A DNA stretch of 64,000 nucleotides, taken from positions 162,899-226,898 of the forward strand of contig DAOMCT010000001.1 in the NCBI GenBank assembly GCA_035428045.1, read 5' to 3'. Of this stretch, positions 18,209 to 28,909 are shown one piece after another. The notes beneath the pieces are model-generated. The model was given only the letters and a program-made list of their open reading frames with translations. It was not told the origin of the DNA and did not search any database. Source of the DNA: Thiobacillus sp. (lineage in GTDB: Bacteria > Pseudomonadota > Gammaproteobacteria > Burkholderiales > Thiobacillaceae). Positions within the stretch are counted from its first letter, which is position 1, and each line of letters starts with the position of its first letter. Made by a program: the position numbers and the translations under genes.

Positions 18209-19312
<1,104 letters not shown>

Positions 19313-19349
19313 ACCCGGCAAGGCGCAGCCACCCTGACGGCAGACGTTG

Positions 19350-20222
19350 ATGGCAACGTCGAATCAGCTCATGTTCGCCCGCCAGCTGGGCGCGACTGCC
19401 CGCCTGTTGATCTGGTTGCTGGTGGGGCTGGCCTGCGTGATCGCCGATTCCCGTTATCACGCGCTCGAAGGCTTGCGCAGCGGGTTTTCGCTGCTGCTGC
19501 AACCGGTGCGCGAAACCTTGCGTGTTCCGGCCGATGTCGCCACCGAACTGGGGGGCTTCTTTACCCGTCACCGCCTGTTGCAAAACGAACGCGATGCCTT
19601 GCGCATTGAACGTGCAAGCCTGCTGGCGAGCGTCCATGCCGGGCGCGAGATCAGCCGCGAAAACGCCGAGTTGCGCGCCTTGCTGAAGTTACAGACGCGT
19701 CCCGGCCAGCAGCTGGTGCATGCGGCCATGCTCTATCGGGGGCATGACTGGTTTGCCCAGCAACTGGTGCTGGATCAGGGCGGGCGCGCAAAACTCCGCC
19801 CCGGCTTGCCGGTGGTCGATGCCAGTGGCCTGGTGGGGCAGTTGAGCCAGGTCTACGCGAGTAGCAGCGAGGTCACGCTGGTGAGCAGCCCCAATCAGTT
19901 AACCCCGGTGTTCATTGAACGCACCGGCCAGCGTGGCCTGGTGGAGGGCAGTGGACGCGGTGTTCTCGAACTCAAATACATGCCGGGCAATGCCGATGTG
20001 CGGGTCAATGACCGCTTGATGACCTCTGGTATCGACCGGGTATATCCGGCCGGGATACCGGTGGCGCGCGTCACCCGCGTGACGCATTCGCAATCGGGGC
20101 CCTATTTGCGGGTGGCCTGCGCGCCGTTGGCCGGCCTGGACCGCGCGCGCGCCGTGCTGGTGTTGCGCGCCGACCCGCCGGTCGTGCAAACGCCGTTGCC
20201 GCCAAAGGACAAGAAACCATGA
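19350..20222 (+). CDS. mreC: Rod shape-determining protein MreC
   Basis: TM plus coiled coil (ENAELRALL), GLVGQ, TSGIDRVYPAGIPV. Confidence 0.93.
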   Translation: MATSNQLMFARQLGATARLLIWLLVGLACVIADSRYHALEGLRSGFSLLLQPVRETLRVPADVATELGGFFTRHRLLQNERDALRIERASLLASVHAGREISRENAELRALLKLQTRPGQQLVHAAMLYRGHDWFAQQLVLDQGGRAKLRPGLPVVDASGLVGQLSQVYASSSEVTLVSSPNQLTPVFIERTGQRGLVEGSGRGVLELKYMPGNADVRVNDRLMTSGIDRVYPAGIPVARVTRVTHSQSGPYLRVACAPLAGLDRARAVLVLRADPPVVQTPLPPKDKKP

Positions 20223-20716
20223 GCGCGGCACCTACGAGCGGCAGCTGGCGACGCATTCTGGGCAGCCTGACCCTGGCCTTGCTGCTGGAGCAGCTGCCGT
20301 GGTCGGGTTGGGCGCTGGCGCTGCGGCCGGATTTTTTGCTGATCGGCGTGTTGTTCTGGACGTTGCATCAGCCTGCGCGCATCAGTTTTGGCGCGGCGTT
20401 TCTGGCCGGTTTGCTGGCTGATTTCCAGAATGGCGGCGTGTTCGGCCAGCATGCCATGCCGTATGTGGTCGGCGTCTATCTGGTGCTGATTTTTCGCCTG
20501 CGCTTGCTGCAGTTCGACCCGCTGCGCCAGGCCGCCCAGCTGCTGCCCATGTTCCTGCTGGTGCAGTTGCTGTTGCTGCTGATCGGCTGGCTGGCCGGCA
20601 ACCCGCCTTCTGACTGGAGCGTCATGTTGCCGGTTGCGAGCAATAGCATGATGTGGCTGGTGCTGGTGGGCGTGCTGCGGCTATGGCACGGCAAGGGCAT
20701 GCAGGACCGGGCATGA
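20219..20716 (+). CDS. mreD: Rod shape-determining protein MreD
   Basis: Hydrophobic; LRPDFLLIGVLFW, GLLAD, GQHA; position in the operon. Confidence 0.9.
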   Translation: MSAAPTSGSWRRILGSLTLALLLEQLPWSGWALALRPDFLLIGVLFWTLHQPARISFGAAFLAGLLADFQNGGVFGQHAMPYVVGVYLVLIFRLRLLQFDPLRQAAQLLPMFLLVQLLLLLIGWLAGNPPSDWSVMLPVASNSMMWLVLVGVLRLWHGKGMQDRA

Positions 20717-22605
20717 GGCGGCCTACTCCGCTCAAGAATCTGGATCGTGAACTGGCGGGTTTTCACGGACGCCTGAAAGTCGGTGCGGTTTTCGTGGCGA
20801 TACTGGCGACCCTGTTGCTGGCGCGGGGCTTTTATCTGCAGATCACGCAGCACGATTACTACACCGGGCGTGCCGAAAGCAATCGCATTTCGCAGGTGCC
20901 GATCGCACCCAATCGCGGGCTGATACTCGACAGCAAAGGCCGTGTGCTGGCAGAAAATTATTCCGCCTATACGCTGGAAGTCACCCGTGGGCATATCGGG
21001 AACCTGGAGACCACCCTGACCAAGGTGGGTAAGCTGATCGAGATTACGCCGGGCCAGTTGCGCCGGTTTCGCCGCCTGCTCGCCGAATCGCACGAGTTCG
21101 AGACGGTGCCGTTGAAAAGCAAGCTGAGCGACGAGGAAGTGGCGATTCTGGCAGCCAACCGCTATCGCCTGCCGGGGATCGAGGTCAAGGCGCGTCTGTT
21201 CCGCAATTATCAGGCGGGCCACGGGATGGCGCACGTGGTGGGCTTTATCGGCCGCATCAATGACCGCGACCTGAAGCGGCTGCGCGAGGCCGGGCGTGAG
21301 GAGAACTATCAGGGCGGCGCGCATATCGGCAAGACCGGGCTCGAGCAGAGTTACGAAACCCTGCTGCACGGCCGTACCGGCTTCGACCAGATGGAGACCG
21401 ATTCAAGCGGCCGCGCAGTCCGCGTGTTGTCGCGCATTCCGCCGGTCCCGGGCAAGGATTTGCGGCTGTATCTTGACCGCGACCTGCAGGAAGTGGCCGA
21501 ACACGTATTCGGTGAGTATCTGGGCGGCCTGGTTGCGCTCGACCCGAATACCGGCGGGGTGCTGGCGCTGGTGAGCAAGCCGGGCTTCGACCCCAACCTG
21601 TTCGTCGACGGCATCGACCCGGAAACCTGGAAATCGCTCAACGAATCGCCCGATCGGCCGATGGTCAACCGCGTGCTGCGCGGAATTTATCCGCCCGGTT
21701 CGACGATCAAGCCCTTCATGGCGCTGGCGGGTCTGGAGCTGGGCTTGCGCAAGCCGTCCGACGCGATCAACGACCCGGGTTATTACAGCCTGCCGCGCAG
21801 CAGCCACCAGTACCGCGACTGGAAAAAAGGCGGCCATGGCGTGGTCGACCTGAGCAAATCGATCGCCCAGTCGTGCGACGTCTACTACTACCGGCTGGCG
21901 GTCGACATGGGGATTGACCGCATGCACGACTATCTTGCGCAGTTTGGGCTGGGTGAAAAATCCGGCATCGATCTCGACGGCGAATCGGCGGGCCTGCTGC
22001 CTTCGCGCGAGTGGAAGCAGCGGCGCTTCAAGCAGCCCTGGTATCCCGGCGAAACGGTGATCGCAGGGATTGGCCAGGGTTTTCATCTCACCACGCCGCT
22101 GCAGCTGGCCGTGGCGACCGCCATGATCGCCAACGGCGGCAAGCGTATCGAGCCCCGGCTGGTGCAGTCGGTGCGCGACCCGCTGACGCGCGCGTGGCAG
22201 GCCCAGCCTGTTGCAACCCGGAAGCAGCTGGCCATCGATCCCGACAATCTGGCAGCGGTGCGCGCAGGCATGATGGCCGTGATGCAGCCCGGCGGCACGG
22301 CATCGCGCGCCGCCGCCGGCGCCGCCTACACGATCGCCGGCAAGACAGGTACCGCGCAGGTGGTGGGAATCAAGCAGGGCGCGCGTTACGACGCAGGCAG
22401 TCTGGCGCGCAAGCATCGTGACCACGCCTTGTTCATCGCCTATGCGCCGGTCGAAAACCCCACCATCGCGATCGCGGTCATGGTGGAAAACGGCGAGCAT
22501 GGCGGCTCCACTGCTGCGCCCATGGCCCGCGCGGTGATGGATTACTACCTGACCGGAAAACGCCCCGGTAACATGAATCTGGGAGCAATCGATGCCACAG
22601 AATAG
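20713..22605 (+). CDS. mrdA: Penicillin-binding protein 2
   Basis: Intact SxxK (GSTIK), SxD (SCD), KTG (GKTGTAQ); APNRGLILD. Confidence 0.95.
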   Translation: MRRPTPLKNLDRELAGFHGRLKVGAVFVAILATLLLARGFYLQITQHDYYTGRAESNRISQVPIAPNRGLILDSKGRVLAENYSAYTLEVTRGHIGNLETTLTKVGKLIEITPGQLRRFRRLLAESHEFETVPLKSKLSDEEVAILAANRYRLPGIEVKARLFRNYQAGHGMAHVVGFIGRINDRDLKRLREAGREENYQGGAHIGKTGLEQSYETLLHGRTGFDQMETDSSGRAVRVLSRIPPVPGKDLRLYLDRDLQEVAEHVFGEYLGGLVALDPNTGGVLALVSKPGFDPNLFVDGIDPETWKSLNESPDRPMVNRVLRGIYPPGSTIKPFMALAGLELGLRKPSDAINDPGYYSLPRSSHQYRDWKKGGHGVVDLSKSIAQSCDVYYYRLAVDMGIDRMHDYLAQFGLGEKSGIDLDGESAGLLPSREWKQRRFKQPWYPGETVIAGIGQGFHLTTPLQLAVATAMIANGGKRIEPRLVQSVRDPLTRAWQAQPVATRKQLAIDPDNLAAVRAGMMAVMQPGGTASRAAAGAAYTIAGKTGTAQVVGIKQGARYDAGSLARKHRDHALFIAYAPVENPTIAIAVMVENGEHGGSTAAPMARAVMDYYLTGKRPGNMNLGAIDATE

Positions 22606-23689
22606 CCATTGGATTCTGCGCCGGCTGGGTCATCTCGACGGCATTCTGCTGACCCTGGTGGTGGTGCTGCTGGGGGTGAGCCTGGCGATGGTGGCGAGCG
22701 CGTCAGGCCAGAGCCCCGCGCGCATCAGCGGCCATCTCATCAATATCGGCCTCGCGCTGTCAGTGATGGTGGTGATGGCCAACGTGCCGCCGCACATCCT
22801 GTCCAAAGTGGGACCGCCGCTCTATGTGGCTGGCGTGACCTTGCTCATCGGCGTGGCCTTGTTCGGCGAAATCCGCAACGGCGCGCGGCGCTGGCTCAAC
22901 CTTGGCTTTGCGTTCCAGCCGTCCGAACTGCTGAAGCTGGCGCTGCCGCTGATGCTGGCCTGGTACTTCCAGCGCAACGAAGGCGGCTTGCGCGGCAAGC
23001 ATTTTTGGGTGGGCGGGGCGTTGCTGCTGGTGCCCTTCCTCCTGATTCTGCGTCAGCCGGACCTGGGCACTGCGCTGATGATCGGTGCGTCAGGTTTTTA
23101 CCTGCTGTTTTTTGCCGGCTTGTCGTGGAAGGTGATTGCCGGCGGTGGCGCGCTGGCCGGCGCGAGCCTGCCTCTGGTGTGGATCCTGATGCACGACTAC
23201 CAGCAGCGTCGCGTGCTGACCTTGCTCGACCCGACCTCCGATCCGCTGGGCGATGGTTACCACATCATTCAATCGACCATTGCGATCGGTTCGGGTGGCT
23301 TGTTCGGCAAGGGCTGGATGCAGGGCACGCAAAACCAACTCGACTTCGTTCCCGAGCGCACGACGGATTTCATCTATGCTGTATTTGGCGAGGAATTCGG
23401 CTATGTCGGCACGATCCTGCTGGTCGGGCTTTATCTCGCCATCGTCGCGCGCGGGCTGGTTATTGCGGCGCGCGCCCCCACATTGTTTGGACGCTTGATG
23501 GCCGCAACGCTGAGCCTGAACCTGTTCACCTATGCCTTCGTCAACATGGGCATGGTTTCGGGCATTTTGCCGGTGGTCGGCGTCCCGTTGCCGCTGATGA
23601 GCTATGGTGGCACGGCGTTCATCACCCTGCTGCTGGGCGTGGGCATCATCATGAGCGTGGCGACACATCGCCAGCTCAACAAAACCTGA
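22592..23689 (+). CDS. mrdB: RodA SEDS peptidoglycan polymerase
   Basis: GARRWL, QPSELLK, QPDLGT, PERTTDFI, GVPLPLMSYGG. Confidence 0.95.
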   Translation: MPQNSHWILRRLGHLDGILLTLVVVLLGVSLAMVASASGQSPARISGHLINIGLALSVMVVMANVPPHILSKVGPPLYVAGVTLLIGVALFGEIRNGARRWLNLGFAFQPSELLKLALPLMLAWYFQRNEGGLRGKHFWVGGALLLVPFLLILRQPDLGTALMIGASGFYLLFFAGLSWKVIAGGGALAGASLPLVWILMHDYQQRRVLTLLDPTSDPLGDGYHIIQSTIAIGSGGLFGKGWMQGTQNQLDFVPERTTDFIYAVFGEEFGYVGTILLVGLYLAIVARGLVIAARAPTLFGRLMAATLSLNLFTYAFVNMGMVSGILPVVGVPLPLMSYGGTAFITLLLGVGIIMSVATHRQLNKT

Positions 23690-23706: not shown

Positions 23707-24540
23707 ATGAAAACGATCCTGATTTCTGCTTCGGTCGCAATCACCCTGGTGCTGGCCGGTTGCAGCAGCGGCCCAACGGTCGGCGACAAAAAAAACCCGG
23801 ACCCAGCCAAGAGCGCCAAGAAAGGCGGCTATTACCTCGACGACGGCCCCGATGCCTCGCCACCGCCCGACCTCGCCGCCATTCCGGACGCAGTGCCGCG
23901 TGCCGAGCCGTTGCACCGTTTTGCCAACCGCCCCTACGAAGTGATGGGCAGTCGTTATGTGCCTCAGAGCGAGCGCCGCGCGCACAGCGAAGAAGGCGTT
24001 GCATCGTGGTATGGCAAGCGGTTTCACGGCAGAAAAACCGCCTCGGGCGAACGCTACGACATGTATGCGATGACTGCGGCACATCCGACCTTGCCGATCC
24101 CGAGTTACGTGCGGGTCACCTCGCTCGCCAATGGCAAAAGCGTGGTGGTGCGGATCAACGACCGCGGGCCGTTTCACAGCAAGCGCATTATCGATCTGTC
24201 GTATGTCGCCGCGAGCAAGCTCGGCTACATCGGCAAGGGCAGCACCCGGGTGCGGGTGGAAAGTCTCGATTCGGCGGCCTACGACACGACGGGCGAAGCC
24301 ATCGAACAAGGCCTTTATTTGCAGGTAGGGGCTTTTTCCAGCCCCGGCAACGCCCAGCAATTGCTGGCGCGCCTGACGCGTGAGCTCGAGCTCGACGACC
24401 AGCAGACGCGCGTCGTCCTGACCGGCAAGCTGCACCGTGTGCAGCTCGGTCCGTATCCCAGCGATGACGCCGCCCAAGCGGAACGCGGCCGGGTGCAGGA
24501 CCGCCTTGCCTTGAATGCCATTCTGGTCCGGCGCGATTGA
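23707..24540 (+). CDS. rlpA: Septal ring lytic transglycosylase RlpA
   Basis: Lipobox LAGC, DPBB motif ASWYG...TAAHPTLP...RINDRGPF, C-terminal SPOR domain. Confidence 0.93.
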   Translation: MKTILISASVAITLVLAGCSSGPTVGDKKNPDPAKSAKKGGYYLDDGPDASPPPDLAAIPDAVPRAEPLHRFANRPYEVMGSRYVPQSERRAHSEEGVASWYGKRFHGRKTASGERYDMYAMTAAHPTLPIPSYVRVTSLANGKSVVVRINDRGPFHSKRIIDLSYVAASKLGYIGKGSTRVRVESLDSAAYDTTGEAIEQGLYLQVGAFSSPGNAQQLLARLTRELELDDQQTRVVLTGKLHRVQLGPYPSDDAAQAERGRVQDRLALNAILVRRD

Positions 24541-24547
24541 GCCGGCC

Positions 24548-25669
24548 ATGTTGAGCGCACGTTTTTACCTTGTCTTGATCGGGCTTTTTTTTGCGCTTAC
24601 GGCATGGGCTGCGCCCACCGGCATGACTGCGCGGGCCTGGGTGTCGATCGATGCGGTAACCGGCCGCGAGCTGGCGGCGCATCAAGCCGATTTGCCCCTG
24701 GCTCCGGCTTCCCTGACCCAGTTGATGACGGCTTATGTACTGCTGGGCGACATCAGGAAAAACAAGCTGAGCCTCGGCGAAATGCTCAGCGTGCCGCCCG
24801 CGGCCGAACAGGTGGACGGCGCGCGCGTCTTCCTCAAGGCGGGCGAGCAGATCAGCGTCGACACCCTGCTGCAGGCGATGCTGGTGCACTCTGCCAGCGA
24901 CGCCACGTTGACGCTGGTGACGGCAGTCGACGGCAGCGAAGCGGCGTTTGTGGAGCGCATGAATAGTGAAGCAAAACGCCTTGGCATGAGCAAGACCCGC
25001 TTCATGAATGCCACCGGCCTGACCGAGCCGGGGCACGAGTCGAGTGCACGTGACCTGGCGATACTGGGGCGGGCGTTGGGTCGCGACTTTGCCAATCGCC
25101 AGACGTTTTTCACGCAGAAGGAACTGGTTTTCAAGGGCGTCACCTATTACAACGCCAATCGCCTGCTGTGGCGCGACCCTGCGGTGAATGGCCTGAAGGT
25201 CGGCCGCACCGCGCAGGCGGGATATTGCAGCGTGGCCTCGGCGCAACGCGGAGACCAGCAACGCATCGCGGTGGTGCTGGGCGCGCGCAGCGACGCGCTG
25301 CGTACCCAGGACGCGCTGAAGCTTCTGAACGATGGCTTCGAGAACTTCGACAGTGTGCTGCTGTATCGCGCCCGGCAGCCGGTCAAGGTGGTCAAGTTGT
25401 ACCGCGGCATCAGCGATTCGGTGGCGCTGGGATTTGCGCAGGACTTGCACGTGTTGATCCCGCACGGCAGCGCTGCGCGGATCAAGGCGCAGGTCATCAC
25501 CCAGCAGCCGGTACTGGCGCCGCTGCGCAAGGGGCAGCGCATGGGCAGCCTGCGCCTGACACTCGATGGCAAGCCGCTGGGAGAATTTGCGCTGGTGGCG
25601 CTGCAGGGCGTGAGCGTGTCCGGCATTTTTGGTCGGGCCTGGGATTCGATCCGGCTGATGGTGGAGTGA
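24548..25669 (+). CDS. dacA: D-Ala-D-Ala carboxypeptidase (PBP5/DacA) homologue with degenerate active-site motifs
   Basis: Peptidase S11 plus PBP5 C-terminal architecture, but motifs read SLTQ, SAS and KVG instead of SxxK, SxN and KTG. Confidence 0.85.
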   Translation: MLSARFYLVLIGLFFALTAWAAPTGMTARAWVSIDAVTGRELAAHQADLPLAPASLTQLMTAYVLLGDIRKNKLSLGEMLSVPPAAEQVDGARVFLKAGEQISVDTLLQAMLVHSASDATLTLVTAVDGSEAAFVERMNSEAKRLGMSKTRFMNATGLTEPGHESSARDLAILGRALGRDFANRQTFFTQKELVFKGVTYYNANRLLWRDPAVNGLKVGRTAQAGYCSVASAQRGDQQRIAVVLGARSDALRTQDALKLLNDGFENFDSVLLYRARQPVKVVKLYRGISDSVALGFAQDLHVLIPHGSAARIKAQVITQQPVLAPLRKGQRMGSLRLTLDGKPLGEFALVALQGVSVSGIFGRAWDSIRLMVE

Positions 25670-26517
25670 TGAACGTCTATCTGGATGGGCAATTCCTGCC
25701 CCTGGCCGACGCGAAAGTGTCACCACTCGACCGCGGCTTTGTGTTCGGCGATGGCGTGTACGAACTGGTTCCGGTGTATTCGCGCAAGCCGTTCCGTCTG
25801 GAGGAACACCTGCGCCGCCTGCAGGGCAGCCTCGACGGCATCCGTCTGGCCAACCCGCATGGTGTGGCGCGATGGCGCGAGCTGGTCGAGCAGTTGATAG
25901 CGCTGCAGGATTTCAACGACCAGTCGGTTTACCTGCAGATCACGCGCGGCGTGGCGCCGCGCGATCAGGCTTTTCCGCTTGGCGTGGCGCCGACCGTGTT
26001 CATGTTCTCCCAGCCGCTGGTGAGCGCAACGCAGGCGCAGAAAGAGGCCGGCGTGTGTGCGATCACGGCGCGGGACATCCGTTGGGGGCGCTGCGATATC
26101 AAGGCCGTCTCGCTGCTCGCCAATGTGCTGGCACGCCAGCAGGCGGTGGAAGCCGGGTGTGCCGAAACCGTGATGCTGCGCGACGGCTTTTTGAGCGAAG
26201 GCGCGGCGAGCAATATTTTTGCGGTGAAAAACGGCGTGTTGCTGGCACCGCAGCCCTCCCCGCTGATTCTGACCGGCATCACCTACGACGTGGTGCTCGA
26301 ACTCGCTGCCGCGCATGGCATTCCGTCCGAACTGCGGGCGATCAGCGAAGCCGAACTGCGCGGCGTGGACGAATTGTGGATGACGTCGTCTACCAAGGAA
26401 ATCATGCCGATCGTGCGTCTCGATGGCGCGCCGGTCGGCGACGGCAAACAAGGGCCGATGGCGCGGCAGATGGATGCGCTGTACCAGCAATTCAAACAAC
26501 AGGTGATGCGCGCATGA
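25669..26517 (+). CDS. D-amino acid aminotransferase (PLP class IV)
   Basis: DRGFVFGDGVYE, RCDIKAVSLL, EGAASN, LTGIT, SSTKEIMP. Confidence 0.9.
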   Translation: MNVYLDGQFLPLADAKVSPLDRGFVFGDGVYELVPVYSRKPFRLEEHLRRLQGSLDGIRLANPHGVARWRELVEQLIALQDFNDQSVYLQITRGVAPRDQAFPLGVAPTVFMFSQPLVSATQAQKEAGVCAITARDIRWGRCDIKAVSLLANVLARQQAVEAGCAETVMLRDGFLSEGAASNIFAVKNGVLLAPQPSPLILTGITYDVVLELAAAHGIPSELRAISEAELRGVDELWMTSSTKEIMPIVRLDGAPVGDGKQGPMARQMDALYQQFKQQVMRA

Positions 26518-26795
26518 GCGAGGAAACCCTGCTCGAGTTTCCGACCGATTTTCCGGTCAAGATCATGGGTGAGCGGCGCGTGTCTCCCAGCGGAGGCGAA
26601 GAATTCGCGCAGACCATGATCGAACTGGTGCAGCGCCATGCGCCCGATTTCGATCCTGATACCGCCGAAATTCGCGTATCGAGCAAAGGCCATTACCTGA
26701 GCGTGACCTGTGTCGTTCGTGCCACGTCCAAAGCTCAGCTTGATTCGCTGTATCTCGAGATCACCGCGCATCCGTGGGTGAAGATGGCGCTGTGA
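26514..26795 (+). CDS. ybeD: YbeD/DUF493 family protein
   Basis: [13 protein letters not shown]...[10 protein letters not shown]...HPWVKMAL, upstream of lipB. Confidence 0.9.
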
Positions 26796-26835
26796 GGAGT
26801 CAGAGGTCAGTGGTCAGGGGGCAGGGAGGTGAGGC
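26793..26835 (+). repeat. TCAGNGG heptamer short tandem repeat
   Basis: tgaggag-tcagagg-tcagtgg-tcagggg-gcaggga-ggtgagg between ybeD and lipB. Confidence 0.6.
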
Positions 26836-26839
26836 GATC

Positions 26840-27436
26840 GTGCGCAGCCTGGGGCGGGTCGAGTACGAACCGACCTGGCGGGCGATGCAGGAATTCACGG
26901 CGCGGCGTACGCCTGACACGGCGGACGAGATATGGCTGCTGGAGCATCCGCCGGTTTACACCCAGGGCCAGGCGGGCAAGCCCGAGCACCTGATCGCCGC
27001 CACCGCCATCCCTGTCGTGCCGATTGATCGCGGTGGGCAGATCACCTATCACGGCCCGGGACAGATCGTCGCCTATGTGCTGGTCGATCTGCGGCGGCGT
27101 GGTTATGGCATCCGTGAACTGGTCACGCGGATGGAGCAGGCCGTGATCGATGTGCTGACCGGAGTGGCAGTGGCCGCCACCCGGCAGGCAGGCGCGCCGG
27201 GGGTGTACGTGGCGGGCGCAAAAATTGCCGCGCTGGGACTGCGCGTCAAGCAGGGTTGCACCTATCACGGCCTGGCACTGAATGTGGACATGGACTTGCA
27301 GCCGTTTTCCGCAATCAATCCCTGCGGGTATGCCGGCATGCAGGTCACGCAATGCCGCGACCTTGGCGTCAGCGAGTCGCTGCCGGCTTTGGCGCAAGCT
27401 GTCGAACTCGCCTTGCGCCGAACGATCTATTCTTGA
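26840..27436 (+). CDS. lipB: Lipoyl(octanoyl) transferase
   Basis: [42 protein letters not shown]. Start GTG 26840 (RBS ggaggtga) or GTG 26792. Confidence 0.95.
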
Positions 27437-27453: not shown

Positions 27454-27485
27454 TAGTATTCTTGCGGCTTCTATTGGAGTTATTT

Positions 27486-28601
27486 ATGACCACCGACACC
27501 CTGCCGTCCGATCCCAAGCTGCTGATGCGTTCGATCATCCAGCGCATCGCCACCGGTCCCGACCTGTCGAAAGACATCAGCCGCACCGAGGCGCACCTGG
27601 GTACCAAGGCCATCATCGACAACATGATCGATCCGGTTCAGGTCGGGATTTATTTCATTGCCTTGCGGATGAAGCGCGAGACCATGGACGAAAACCGCGG
27701 CGTGCTCGATGCCGTGCTGGATACTACGCTCCGCGTGACGGCCGAGGTGGACGAGGTGGTCGATATCGGTGATCCGTACGACGGCTATACCCGCTGCCTG
27801 CCTGCTGCACCGTTTCTCGGTCCGTTACTGGCAGAGCTGGGCGTGCATGTGGTGTCGCATGGTCTCGACAAGGTGGGGCCCAAGTTCGGCGTGACGGTGC
27901 GCCATGTGCTGGAAGCCGCGGGGGTGCCGGTGAACCTGACGCCGGTCGAAGCCGCCGCGCGTCTGAGCGACCCGGCCCTCGGCTGGAGTTATGTCGACCA
28001 GGCGCAATCCAACCCCGGCATGCACAAGCTGATTCCGCTGCGCACGCAGATGATCAAGCGTCAGGTGCTGACCACGGTGGAAGTGTTGTCGAAGCCGATC
28101 GCCGGCAAGAAGCTGACCCATTTCATCACCGGCTACGTGCACAAGCCCTATCCGCCAGTGTATGCCGATCTTGCCCGGGTGGCCGGATTCGACACTGCCT
28201 GCATCGTGCGCGGCGTCGAGGGCGGGGTGATCCCGTCGCTGCGCCAGACCGGCAAATATTTCCACTATCACGACCGTGCCGAGGAAATCGAGGCCAGCAT
28301 CGATCCGGTTGCGCTCGGCATCGACCAGCCAGTACGCGCTGTGCCGCTGCCCGGCAGTGTGGCGGGCGAAGCGGGCGAGGACGAAATTGTCGCTGCCATC
28401 GACATCAAGGCCACGGCACGCGCTGCCGCCGAGGCCGGGATTCTGGCGCTCAAGGGCGACAAGGGCGCGACCTACGACTCGCTGGTGCTGGCCGGCTCGA
28501 TCGTCCTGCTCCACGTCGGCAAAGCCGCCAGCGTGGCCGATGCGGCGCTGCAGATTCGCGCAGTGCTGGATTCCGGCCGCGCCGTGGCACGGGTGAAGTG
28601 A
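27486..28601 (+). CDS. TrpD/YbiB-like glycosyl transferase family 3 protein (non-canonical)
   Basis: N-terminal helical domain IIQRIATG...GIYFIALRMKRET resembles YbiB/TrpD; GTGGD is absent (IGDPYDGYTR instead); VRGVEGG. Confidence 0.75.
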   Translation: MTTDTLPSDPKLLMRSIIQRIATGPDLSKDISRTEAHLGTKAIIDNMIDPVQVGIYFIALRMKRETMDENRGVLDAVLDTTLRVTAEVDEVVDIGDPYDGYTRCLPAAPFLGPLLAELGVHVVSHGLDKVGPKFGVTVRHVLEAAGVPVNLTPVEAAARLSDPALGWSYVDQAQSNPGMHKLIPLRTQMIKRQVLTTVEVLSKPIAGKKLTHFITGYVHKPYPPVYADLARVAGFDTACIVRGVEGGVIPSLRQTGKYFHYHDRAEEIEASIDPVALGIDQPVRAVPLPGSVAGEAGEDEIVAAIDIKATARAAAEAGILALKGDKGATYDSLVLAGSIVLLHVGKAASVADAALQIRAVLDSGRAVARVK

Positions 28602-28909
28602 TGGCTGAATATGTCGCTATTGCCGCCGCCGATGAGCTCAAGCCGGCGCAGATGAAGCGCGTTGTCGTCGACGGCAAAAAGTTGCTGCTGTGCAACTCGA
28701 ACGGCACGCATTATGTCGTCGATGAAATGTGCACTCACGAGGATTACTCGCTATATCTGGGCTGCATCAAGGACGGCAAGATCAAGTGTTCGCTGCATGG
28801 CAGCTACTTCGATCTGACCACCGGCCAGCCTACCTGCGATCCGGCGGACGAACCGATCAAGACCTATCCGGTGAAGCTCGAAGCCGGTCAGGTGTGGGTA
28901 CAGGTCTGA
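28601..28909 (+). CDS. Rieske-type [2Fe-2S] ferredoxin
   Basis: CTHED...CSLHGSYFDLTTG; GTGA/ATG overlap with the upstream gene. Confidence 0.92.
   Translation: MAEYVAIAAADELKPAQMKRVVVDGKKLLLCNSNGTHYVVDEMCTHEDYSLYLGCIKDGKIKCSLHGSYFDLTTGQPTCDPADEPIKTYPVKLEAGQVWVQV

Follow-up and report, generated by a model that had tools for sequence, protein, structure and literature searches.

Within a 64,000-nucleotide stretch of a Thiobacillus sp. genome (contig DAOMCT010000001.1, positions 162,899 to 226,898; in the following, the window), the gene dacX (24548-25669, + strand; ATG at 24548, TGA at 25667-25669) encodes a 373-residue protein of the penicillin-binding protein 5 (PBP5, DacA) type, in which SLTQ, SAS and KVG occupy the positions of the three active-site motifs. 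From its motifs, its relatives and its genomic neighbourhood we propose, with a probability of about 65%, that DacX is a conserved, catalytically crippled accessory of the elongasome, which has retained the PBP5 fold, acts non-enzymatically and is kept by selection. An earlier note on this DNA had already called the protein a probable pseudo-enzyme. The loss of the motifs, the intact gene and the purifying selection acting on it all agree with this designation; the loss of activity as such is deduced from sequence.

DacX combines a complete PBP5 architecture with altered active-site motifs

The domain architecture of DacX is that of its family. Peptidase_S11 (PF00768) is matched with 199.1 bits (Pfam cut-off 27.6), and PBP5_C (PF07943), the C-terminal beta-sandwich, with 59.2 bits (cut-off 21.2). 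The top match among solved structures is the PBP5 of P. aeruginosa (4k91), which aligns over the full length with an E value of 5e-73; PBP6 and PBP5 of E. coli were likewise found. Read by eye, the amino-terminal region (24548-24610) is predicted to be a Sec signal peptide, MLSARFYLVLIGLFFALTAWA, that ends in the cleavage site A-W-A. The carboxy-terminal stretch (25625-25666) is an amphipathic helix, GRAWDSIRLMVE, which corresponds to the usual membrane anchor of PBP5 in the alignment and to helix 360-372 of an AlphaFold2 (AF2) model, and its length and pattern match those of the canonical orthologues of the family. A truncated anchor was considered as a special feature of DacX and rejected: the protein does end earlier than E. 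coli PBP5 and than a paralogue encoded elsewhere in the genome (see below), but this is equally true of the family's canonical orthologues. With regard to the start codon, the homologue lengths of 371-376 residues favour the ATG at 24548 over an upstream ATG at 24515.

The motifs were read from HMMER alignments to PBP5 and PBP6 structures, which match column for column. In motif 1 (S55-L-T-Q58, 24710-24721), aligned with the SLTK of 4k91, 3it9 and 5tr7, the nucleophilic serine is kept whereas the lysine is replaced by glutamine (CAG, 24719-24721). According to the structure alignment, motif 2 (S115-A-S117, 24890-24898) stands in the place of SxN, with SASDA versus SGNDA, and motif 3 (K217-V-G219, 25196-25204) in the place of KTG; all three lie on the + strand. 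The residue next to motif 3, His216 in E. coli numbering, is an arginine. The changes that the earlier note had listed, Lys to Gln, SxN to SxS and KTG to KVG in a full-length and intact frame, are thus borne out by the alignment to solved structures.

In what follows residues are numbered as in E. coli PBP5. The numbering was fitted to that sequence, with S44, K47, S110, N112, K213, T214, G215, H216 and R248 all in place. In the PBP5 and PBP6 structures, Lys47 serves as the general base for acylation, and Asn112 holds the carbonyl of the acyl-amide. Thr214 and Arg198 hold the terminal carboxylate, and Gly105, which is alanine in DacX, is the position at which the PBP5' mutation impairs deacylation.

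When compared with what characterizes an active DD-carboxypeptidase, DacX lacks SxxK, SxN and KTG and scores far below the NCBIfam equivalogs. It reaches 239.7 versus 765 bits for PRK10001, 229 versus 610 bits for DacD and 220 versus 694 bits for DacA, although such a shortfall alone is a weak criterion, as these models are centred on enterobacterial proteins. The AF2 model, based on 33 close homologues, has a mean pLDDT (predicted local distance difference test) of 70.8 and a predicted template-modelling (TM) score of 0.47 and is too poor for a reading of the active site. A Foldseek search with it returned PBP6 and PBP5 at the top (E value 1e-32), with a TM score of only about 0.42.

The altered motifs are fixed within Thiobacillus and dacX is under purifying selection

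The unusual motifs are a trait of the genus rather than of one strain. In a search of 5.8 billion proteins, each of 120 metagenome homologues (72-97% identity) had SLTQ, SA[S/G/V] and K[V/A]G. Glutamine occupies the Lys47 position in 28 of the 30 Thiobacillus genomes sampled, i.e. in all 28 genomes that form the crown of the genus; one further metagenome-assembled genome (MAG; L005) has histidine (SLTH), one step from glutamine. Among 47 genome loci the codon at this position is CAG in 37, CAA in seven, CAC in one and AAA in two cases.

All 165 crown sequences deviate from the canonical state at all three motif residues, and 99% of them carry the glutamine. Since the canonical state of these residues is at least 95% conserved in the 139 type-5 PBPs that were aligned, neither chance nor sequencing error can account for their alteration in 165 of 165 sequences. 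The argument of the earlier note that three changes speak against a sequencing error therefore holds, as the changes are genuine and independent of one another and are fixed throughout the crown. They were not simultaneous, however: SxN was altered first, on the stem of the genus, and the replacements of Lys by Gln and of Thr by Val followed later.

The third position of SxN varies within the crown (S, G, T or V), motif 3 reads K[V/A/S]G, and position 198 is G, A or S. At the same time, 26 of the 33 positions that are invariant (at least 95%) in the 139 canonical type-5 PBPs are retained; the seven changed ones are K47, G105, N112, A119, D210, T214 and, in part, R234. Ser44, Ser110, Lys213 and Gly215 are invariant across several synonymous codons. 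Moreover, 29 conserved residues are specific to the crown, among them Q195 to Y and H216 to R beside the pocket. Apart from these two changes, the scan of crown-specific conserved residues gave no compensating Lys or His near motif 1.

With the GY94 codon model, applied to the same 16 crown genomes for each gene, DacX has an omega (dN/dS) of 0.104; the canonical paralogue (0.087), Dat (0.093) and RlpA (0.096) have similar values, and RodA has a lower one (0.031). In pairwise NG86 comparisons, the median omega comes to 0.22 in DacX, 0.24 in RlpA and 0.20 in Dat. Accordingly, dacX is under ordinary purifying selection, which is as strong as that on real enzymes. The earlier note had described what a decaying pseudogene would look like, namely strain-private substitutions and a dN/dS near 1; what we found instead are substitutions shared across the crown and an omega of 0.10 (GY94) or about 0.2 (NG86), as in the neighbouring genes and the paralogue.

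dacX is the family's own dacA, altered in situ in two steps

Each of the family's 15 genera and each of the 28 best order-level matches has one PBP5-type gene at the rlpA-dac-dat-ybeD-lipB position, and the copies in the other genera and in the order-level matches are all canonical (SLTK, S[G/A]N, KTG). In the protein tree, the Thiobacillus DacX clade (support 100) is nested among the orthologues of the family (support 95), and its stem is 0.5 substitutions per site long. At the same point of a tree built from the neighbours RodA, RlpA, Dat and YbeD, the stem measures only 0.076. Likewise, DacX shares 48.6% identity with the orthologues of the other genera, which share 61.2% among themselves; RodA, RlpA and YbeD have no such deficit, and Dat has a smaller one (60.9 versus 67.9%). 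The long stem and the identity deficit relative to the neighbours point to a gene-specific burst of change that was followed by renewed constraint. Based on synteny and the tree, dacX is the family's own rlpA-linked dacA, altered in situ, and hence the vertically inherited positional orthologue of a single canonical gene. The housekeeping carboxypeptidase was thus not replaced at this locus, as the earlier note had supposed; it was the housekeeping orthologue itself that changed. The pairing of dac with dat is kept over most of the order.

In the neighbour-gene tree the genus falls into two groups, a small clade made up of G040 and G106 (support 100) and the crown with its 28 genomes (support 100). 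In the small clade SxN is already SAS or SAT, Ser72 has become Pro, Ala119 Val and Gln195 Phe, and Lys47 and KTG are kept. The crown has in addition Lys47 to Gln, Thr214 to Val/Ala and Arg198 to Gly/Ala, which map to a single event on the neighbour-gene tree. The history therefore comprises two steps, a fast divergence with loss of the SxN Asn on the stem of the genus and, subsequently, the changes of Lys47, Thr214 and Arg198 on the stem of the crown.

Thiobacillus genomes encode a second, canonical PBP5

The earlier note had suggested searching the genome for another active dacA. A gene that looks active was found on contig C26 of the source genome (L001, G000:C26:1425-2516); it encodes a 381-residue PBP5-type paralogue with SLTK, SGN and KTG. 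Besides, a canonical PBP7-type S11 gene is located on contig C27 and a PBP4-type gene on contig C9. Every Gln-bearing genome sampled has a second PBP5-type match, and the motifs of the paralogue are canonical (SxxK/SGN/KTG) in 17 of the 17 genomes checked. With P. aeruginosa PBP5 the C26 paralogue shares 67% identity, as compared with about 45% for the orthologues of the family and 39% for DacX, and proteins of this type are placed elsewhere in the tree than the rlpA-linked orthologues. Its separate position and the higher identity to the Pseudomonas protein than to the family's orthologues indicate a separate Pseudomonas-type lineage, which was probably acquired horizontally. The tree of the paralogue conflicts with that of the neighbouring genes, which suggests that the gene was acquired horizontally and was later exchanged between members of the genus.

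G040, a genome of 100% completeness, is the only sampled Thiobacillus that lacks the paralogue, and its rlpA-linked gene keeps Lys47 and KTG. This pattern is compatible with the notion that one of the two genes has to supply DD-carboxypeptidase activity. Thiobacillus and its family provide a natural stepwise series, from the canonical state via loss of SxN to loss of Lys and Thr, with a back-up enzyme in all late-stage genomes, and this series is suited to asking which role PBP5 has in the Rod system beyond the cutting of D-Ala. In a sister genus of the family, a different extra PBP5-type paralogue occurs, 32-33% identical to DacX (L085, G001:C11:6245-7330; L086, G058:C6:7588-8616). Its SGN is intact and KAG stands for KTG; SLTK was confirmed in L086 only.

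A proposed non-enzymatic role of DacX and its alternatives

DacX has a predicted signal peptide for export and carries the PBP5-type amphipathic helix at its C-terminus. Its active site has neither the general-base Lys (now Gln) nor the SxN Asn nor the KTG Thr, and Arg198 is gone as well. In the scenario that we favour, DacX would therefore have ceased to process D-Ala-D-Ala stem peptides at an appreciable rate. The trimming of pentapeptides would be left to the canonical Pseudomonas-type PBP5 and to the PBP4- and PBP7-type enzymes. DacX itself would work non-enzymatically in the synthesis or remodelling of the side wall, probably by contacting a partner enzyme or the peptidoglycan, as has also been suggested for the motif-less DacC of Neisseria.

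Several observations weigh against this scenario. Ser44, Ser110, Lys213, Gly215 and Arg248 are strictly conserved, and Gln47 does not vary either; a mere scaffold would have no need of such constancy, which could mean that the pocket still does chemistry or binds a ligand. Furthermore, the link between the paralogue and the loss of Lys amounts to one evolutionary event and one contrasting genome. As the tree of the paralogue is not congruent with the species tree, its acquisition may have come before or after the loss of Lys.

On account of the conserved pocket, the main, though unlikely, alternative is that DacX is still an enzyme, in which a rebuilt site (Ser44, Gln47, Ser110, Lys213, Tyr195, Arg216) transfers acyl groups by another route or on a different substrate, such as stems with an end other than D-Ala-D-Ala. 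The five strictly conserved residues with their synonymous codon variation are in line with this, as are the 26 retained canonical positions, the 29 crown-specific residues including Tyr195 and Arg216 by the pocket, and Gln47, which at 99% is fixed rather than drifting. Also, most of the sequence acceleration preceded the loss of Lys, suggesting that the function had changed earlier. Enzymes of the same fold are able to use Tyr (class C, R61) or tolerate a motif 2 without Asn (SGC in K15, SxV in class D). Yet Gln cannot accept a proton, and no serine enzyme of the penicillin-recognising fold is known to work without the SxxK lysine. In addition, the substrate-holding residues N112, R198 and T214 are lost, their varied replacements (S/G/T/V, G/A/S and V/A/S, respectively) look like relaxation, and other lineages have lost the Ser, too, at the same locus.

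A more far-reaching proposal, which we consider quite unlikely, is that the SxxQ protein is not dead. Its rebuilt pocket (Ser44, Ser110, Lys213, Gly215, Gln47, Tyr195, Arg216) might perform new chemistry on peptidoglycan stems, or it might enter a long-lived complex from which PBP2-RodA receives its pentapeptide donors. If so, this would be the first demonstration of a penicillin-recognising fold that works through its pocket without the SxxK lysine, and the repeated decay of the same locus in Burkholderiales would point to a general elongasome role of the rlpA-linked PBP5 other than that of a carboxypeptidase.

It is very improbable that DacX is a slow-acylating trap or sensor, which would hold D-Ala-D-Ala stems or beta-lactams at its Ser and thus protect the pentapeptide donors of PBP2 or signal the status of the wall. 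Whereas DacX retains the Ser nucleophile and, with K-x-G, the oxyanion-hole strand, and its gene is co-located with mrdA and rodA, the anchors of the terminal carboxylate (T214, R198) and of the acyl-amide (N112) are gone, and a signalling domain or partner gene is absent from the cluster. PbpP of Bacillus thuringiensis offers a case of non-catalytic sensing by a PBP (PMC8092216). The peptidoglycan- or beta-lactam-binding role that the earlier note had put forward is doubtful as well, because Thr214, Arg198 and Asn112, which would hold the carboxylate and the amide, are exactly the residues that were lost. Finally, there is practically no chance that dacX is a decaying pseudogene or an artefact of sequencing or assembly, for which nothing speaks but the motif changes themselves and which is ruled out by the intact frame in each of about 165 sequences from independent assemblies, an omega of 0.10 that equals that of the neighbouring enzymes, an invariant Gln with synonymous codon variation (CAG/CAA) and the coupling of dacX to dat via a TGATG overlap.

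dacX is embedded in a rod-shape gene cluster

On the + strand of the window, dacX is the seventh gene of the unbroken string mreB-mreC-mreD-mrdA-rodA-rlpA-dacX-dat-ybeD-lipB. The string begins with mreB (18224-19312; PF06723 MreB_Mbl, 494 bits), the exact start codon of which is uncertain, followed by mreC (19347-20222; PF04085, 126 bits) and mreD (20219-20716; PF04093, 52 bits). The reading frame of mrdA (20653-22605; PF03717 and PF00905), which codes for PBP2 with STIK and KTG in its translation, likely has its true start at an ATG near 20713 that overlaps the mreD stop. Then come rodA (22592-23689; PF01098, 341 bits) and rlpA (23707-24540; PF03330 and PF05036), the product of which has a double-psi beta-barrel (DPBB) lytic transglycosylase domain and a SPOR domain. 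Downstream of dacX, dat (25669-26517; PF01063, 157 bits) encodes a class IV (D-amino-acid) aminotransferase, and ybeD (DUF493; 26517-26795; PF04359) and lipB (26774-27436; PF21948) complete the string.

The rlpA-dacA-dat context described in the earlier note is correct. Seven bases separate the rlpA stop (24540) from the ATG of dacX, and the ATG of dat (25669) overlaps the dacX stop as TGATG (25667-25671). Around dacX no promoter- or terminator-like site stands out. Directly 3' of lipB (27462-28909) lie a TrpD/YbiB-like open reading frame (ORF) and one for a Rieske-type ferredoxin. The nearest records to the window are MAGs of Thiobacillus and Hydrogenophilales, with 74% protein identity for T. 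thioparus DSM 505 (NZ_KB891330.1).

The locus has degenerated in other lineages of the order

At least one of the seven core motif residues is missing in 25 of the 128 nearest full-length representatives of 50%-identity clusters, with Uliginosibacterium, Aquabacterium and Acidiferrobacteraceae as named examples. Automatic annotation labels such proteins "D-alanyl-D-alanine carboxypeptidase"; judging from these motifs, the name is probably a misnomer for a considerable part of the family (25/128 representatives). When low-scoring genomes of the order were inspected, five out of ten, from four other families, had a copy without the nucleophile that is linked to ybeD or dat, and these five genomes are devoid of a canonical PBP5-type gene. 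The motifs of the five copies include PLTK..ILG, GLSV..IAH, DLVQ, GLTS..SSG and ALTQ..KAG.

Four of these copies are degenerate but intact ORFs with neither the nucleophilic Ser nor KTG: L125 (G180:C16:46359-47018; PLTK/GAN/ILG), L126 (G277:C1:1799849-1800433; GLSV/GAH/IAH), L127 (G193:C50:99226-99801; DLVQ/AAE, no third motif) and L137 (G194:C17:261056-261625; GLTS/GAQ/SSG). They come from three families and are linked to ybeD/lipB or dat, and the other S11 member in these genomes is of the PBP7 type only. The copy in a complete 1.8-Mb genome of another family (L131, G169:C1:907171-907848) reads ALTQ, SAN and KAG. It has lost the nucleophile, too, and its changes of Lys to Gln and Thr to Ala arose independently of those in Thiobacillus. 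As read from these motifs, the rlpA/ybeD-linked PBP5 locus has degenerated repeatedly in the order.

Comparison with known systems

A literature search on the PBPs of Thiobacillus, on SxxK-degenerate PBP5 and on the role of Lys47 yielded nothing specific. DacX resembles the type-5 low-molecular-mass PBPs (MEROPS S11; E. coli PBP5/DacA and PBP6/DacC, P. aeruginosa PBP5 4k91) in the combination of PF00768 and PF07943, the signal peptide and the amphipathic helix, and it has the same rlpA-dac-ybeD-lipB neighbourhood. It differs from them in that Lys is replaced by Gln, the SxN Asn by Ser/Gly/Thr, the KTG Thr by Val/Ala, Arg198 by Gly/Ala and Gly105 by Ala. Hydrolase folds that lack catalytic residues and are kept as regulators or activators of wall enzymes are also found in EnvC and NlpD, which are degenerate LytM factors. 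The analogy to DacX is functional only, as the fold of EnvC and NlpD is unrelated (M23 metallopeptidase); their partner and the mechanism of activation are known.

A protein of the same kind as DacX is already known from Neisseria, which is a betaproteobacterium as well. The DacC of Neisseria is a PBP5/6 homologue with mutated motifs; all three are affected in N. gonorrhoeae, whereas N. meningitidis keeps only SxN (PMC6365954, citing Obergfell et al. 2018). The dacC gene is intact, its mutation alone hardly alters the sacculus, and the protein has been proposed to be a scaffold that may act in a complex directing PBP3 (PMC6365954). Neisseria DacC is thus the published precedent for a dead PBP5, and DacX shares with it the PBP5/6 homology, the mutated motifs and the retention of an intact frame. 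In contrast to DacC, DacX still has the nucleophilic Ser as well as Ser110 and Lys213, and one specific Gln has become fixed; it is part of the intact rod-shape operon of a rod-shaped bacterium, and it coexists with a canonical PBP5 paralogue, which Neisseria does not have. A common descent of the two degenerations looks unlikely, given that the intervening lineages, i.e. the other genera of the family and the 28 order-level orthologues, have canonical motifs. Together, DacX, Neisseria DacC and the degenerate copies from four families suggest that the betaproteobacterial rlpA/ybeD-linked PBP5 may have a selectable non-catalytic role. Among these cases the one of Thiobacillus is distinct, for it combines a retained Ser and the fixation of a particular Gln with an intact rod-shape operon and a canonical xenologue elsewhere in the genome.

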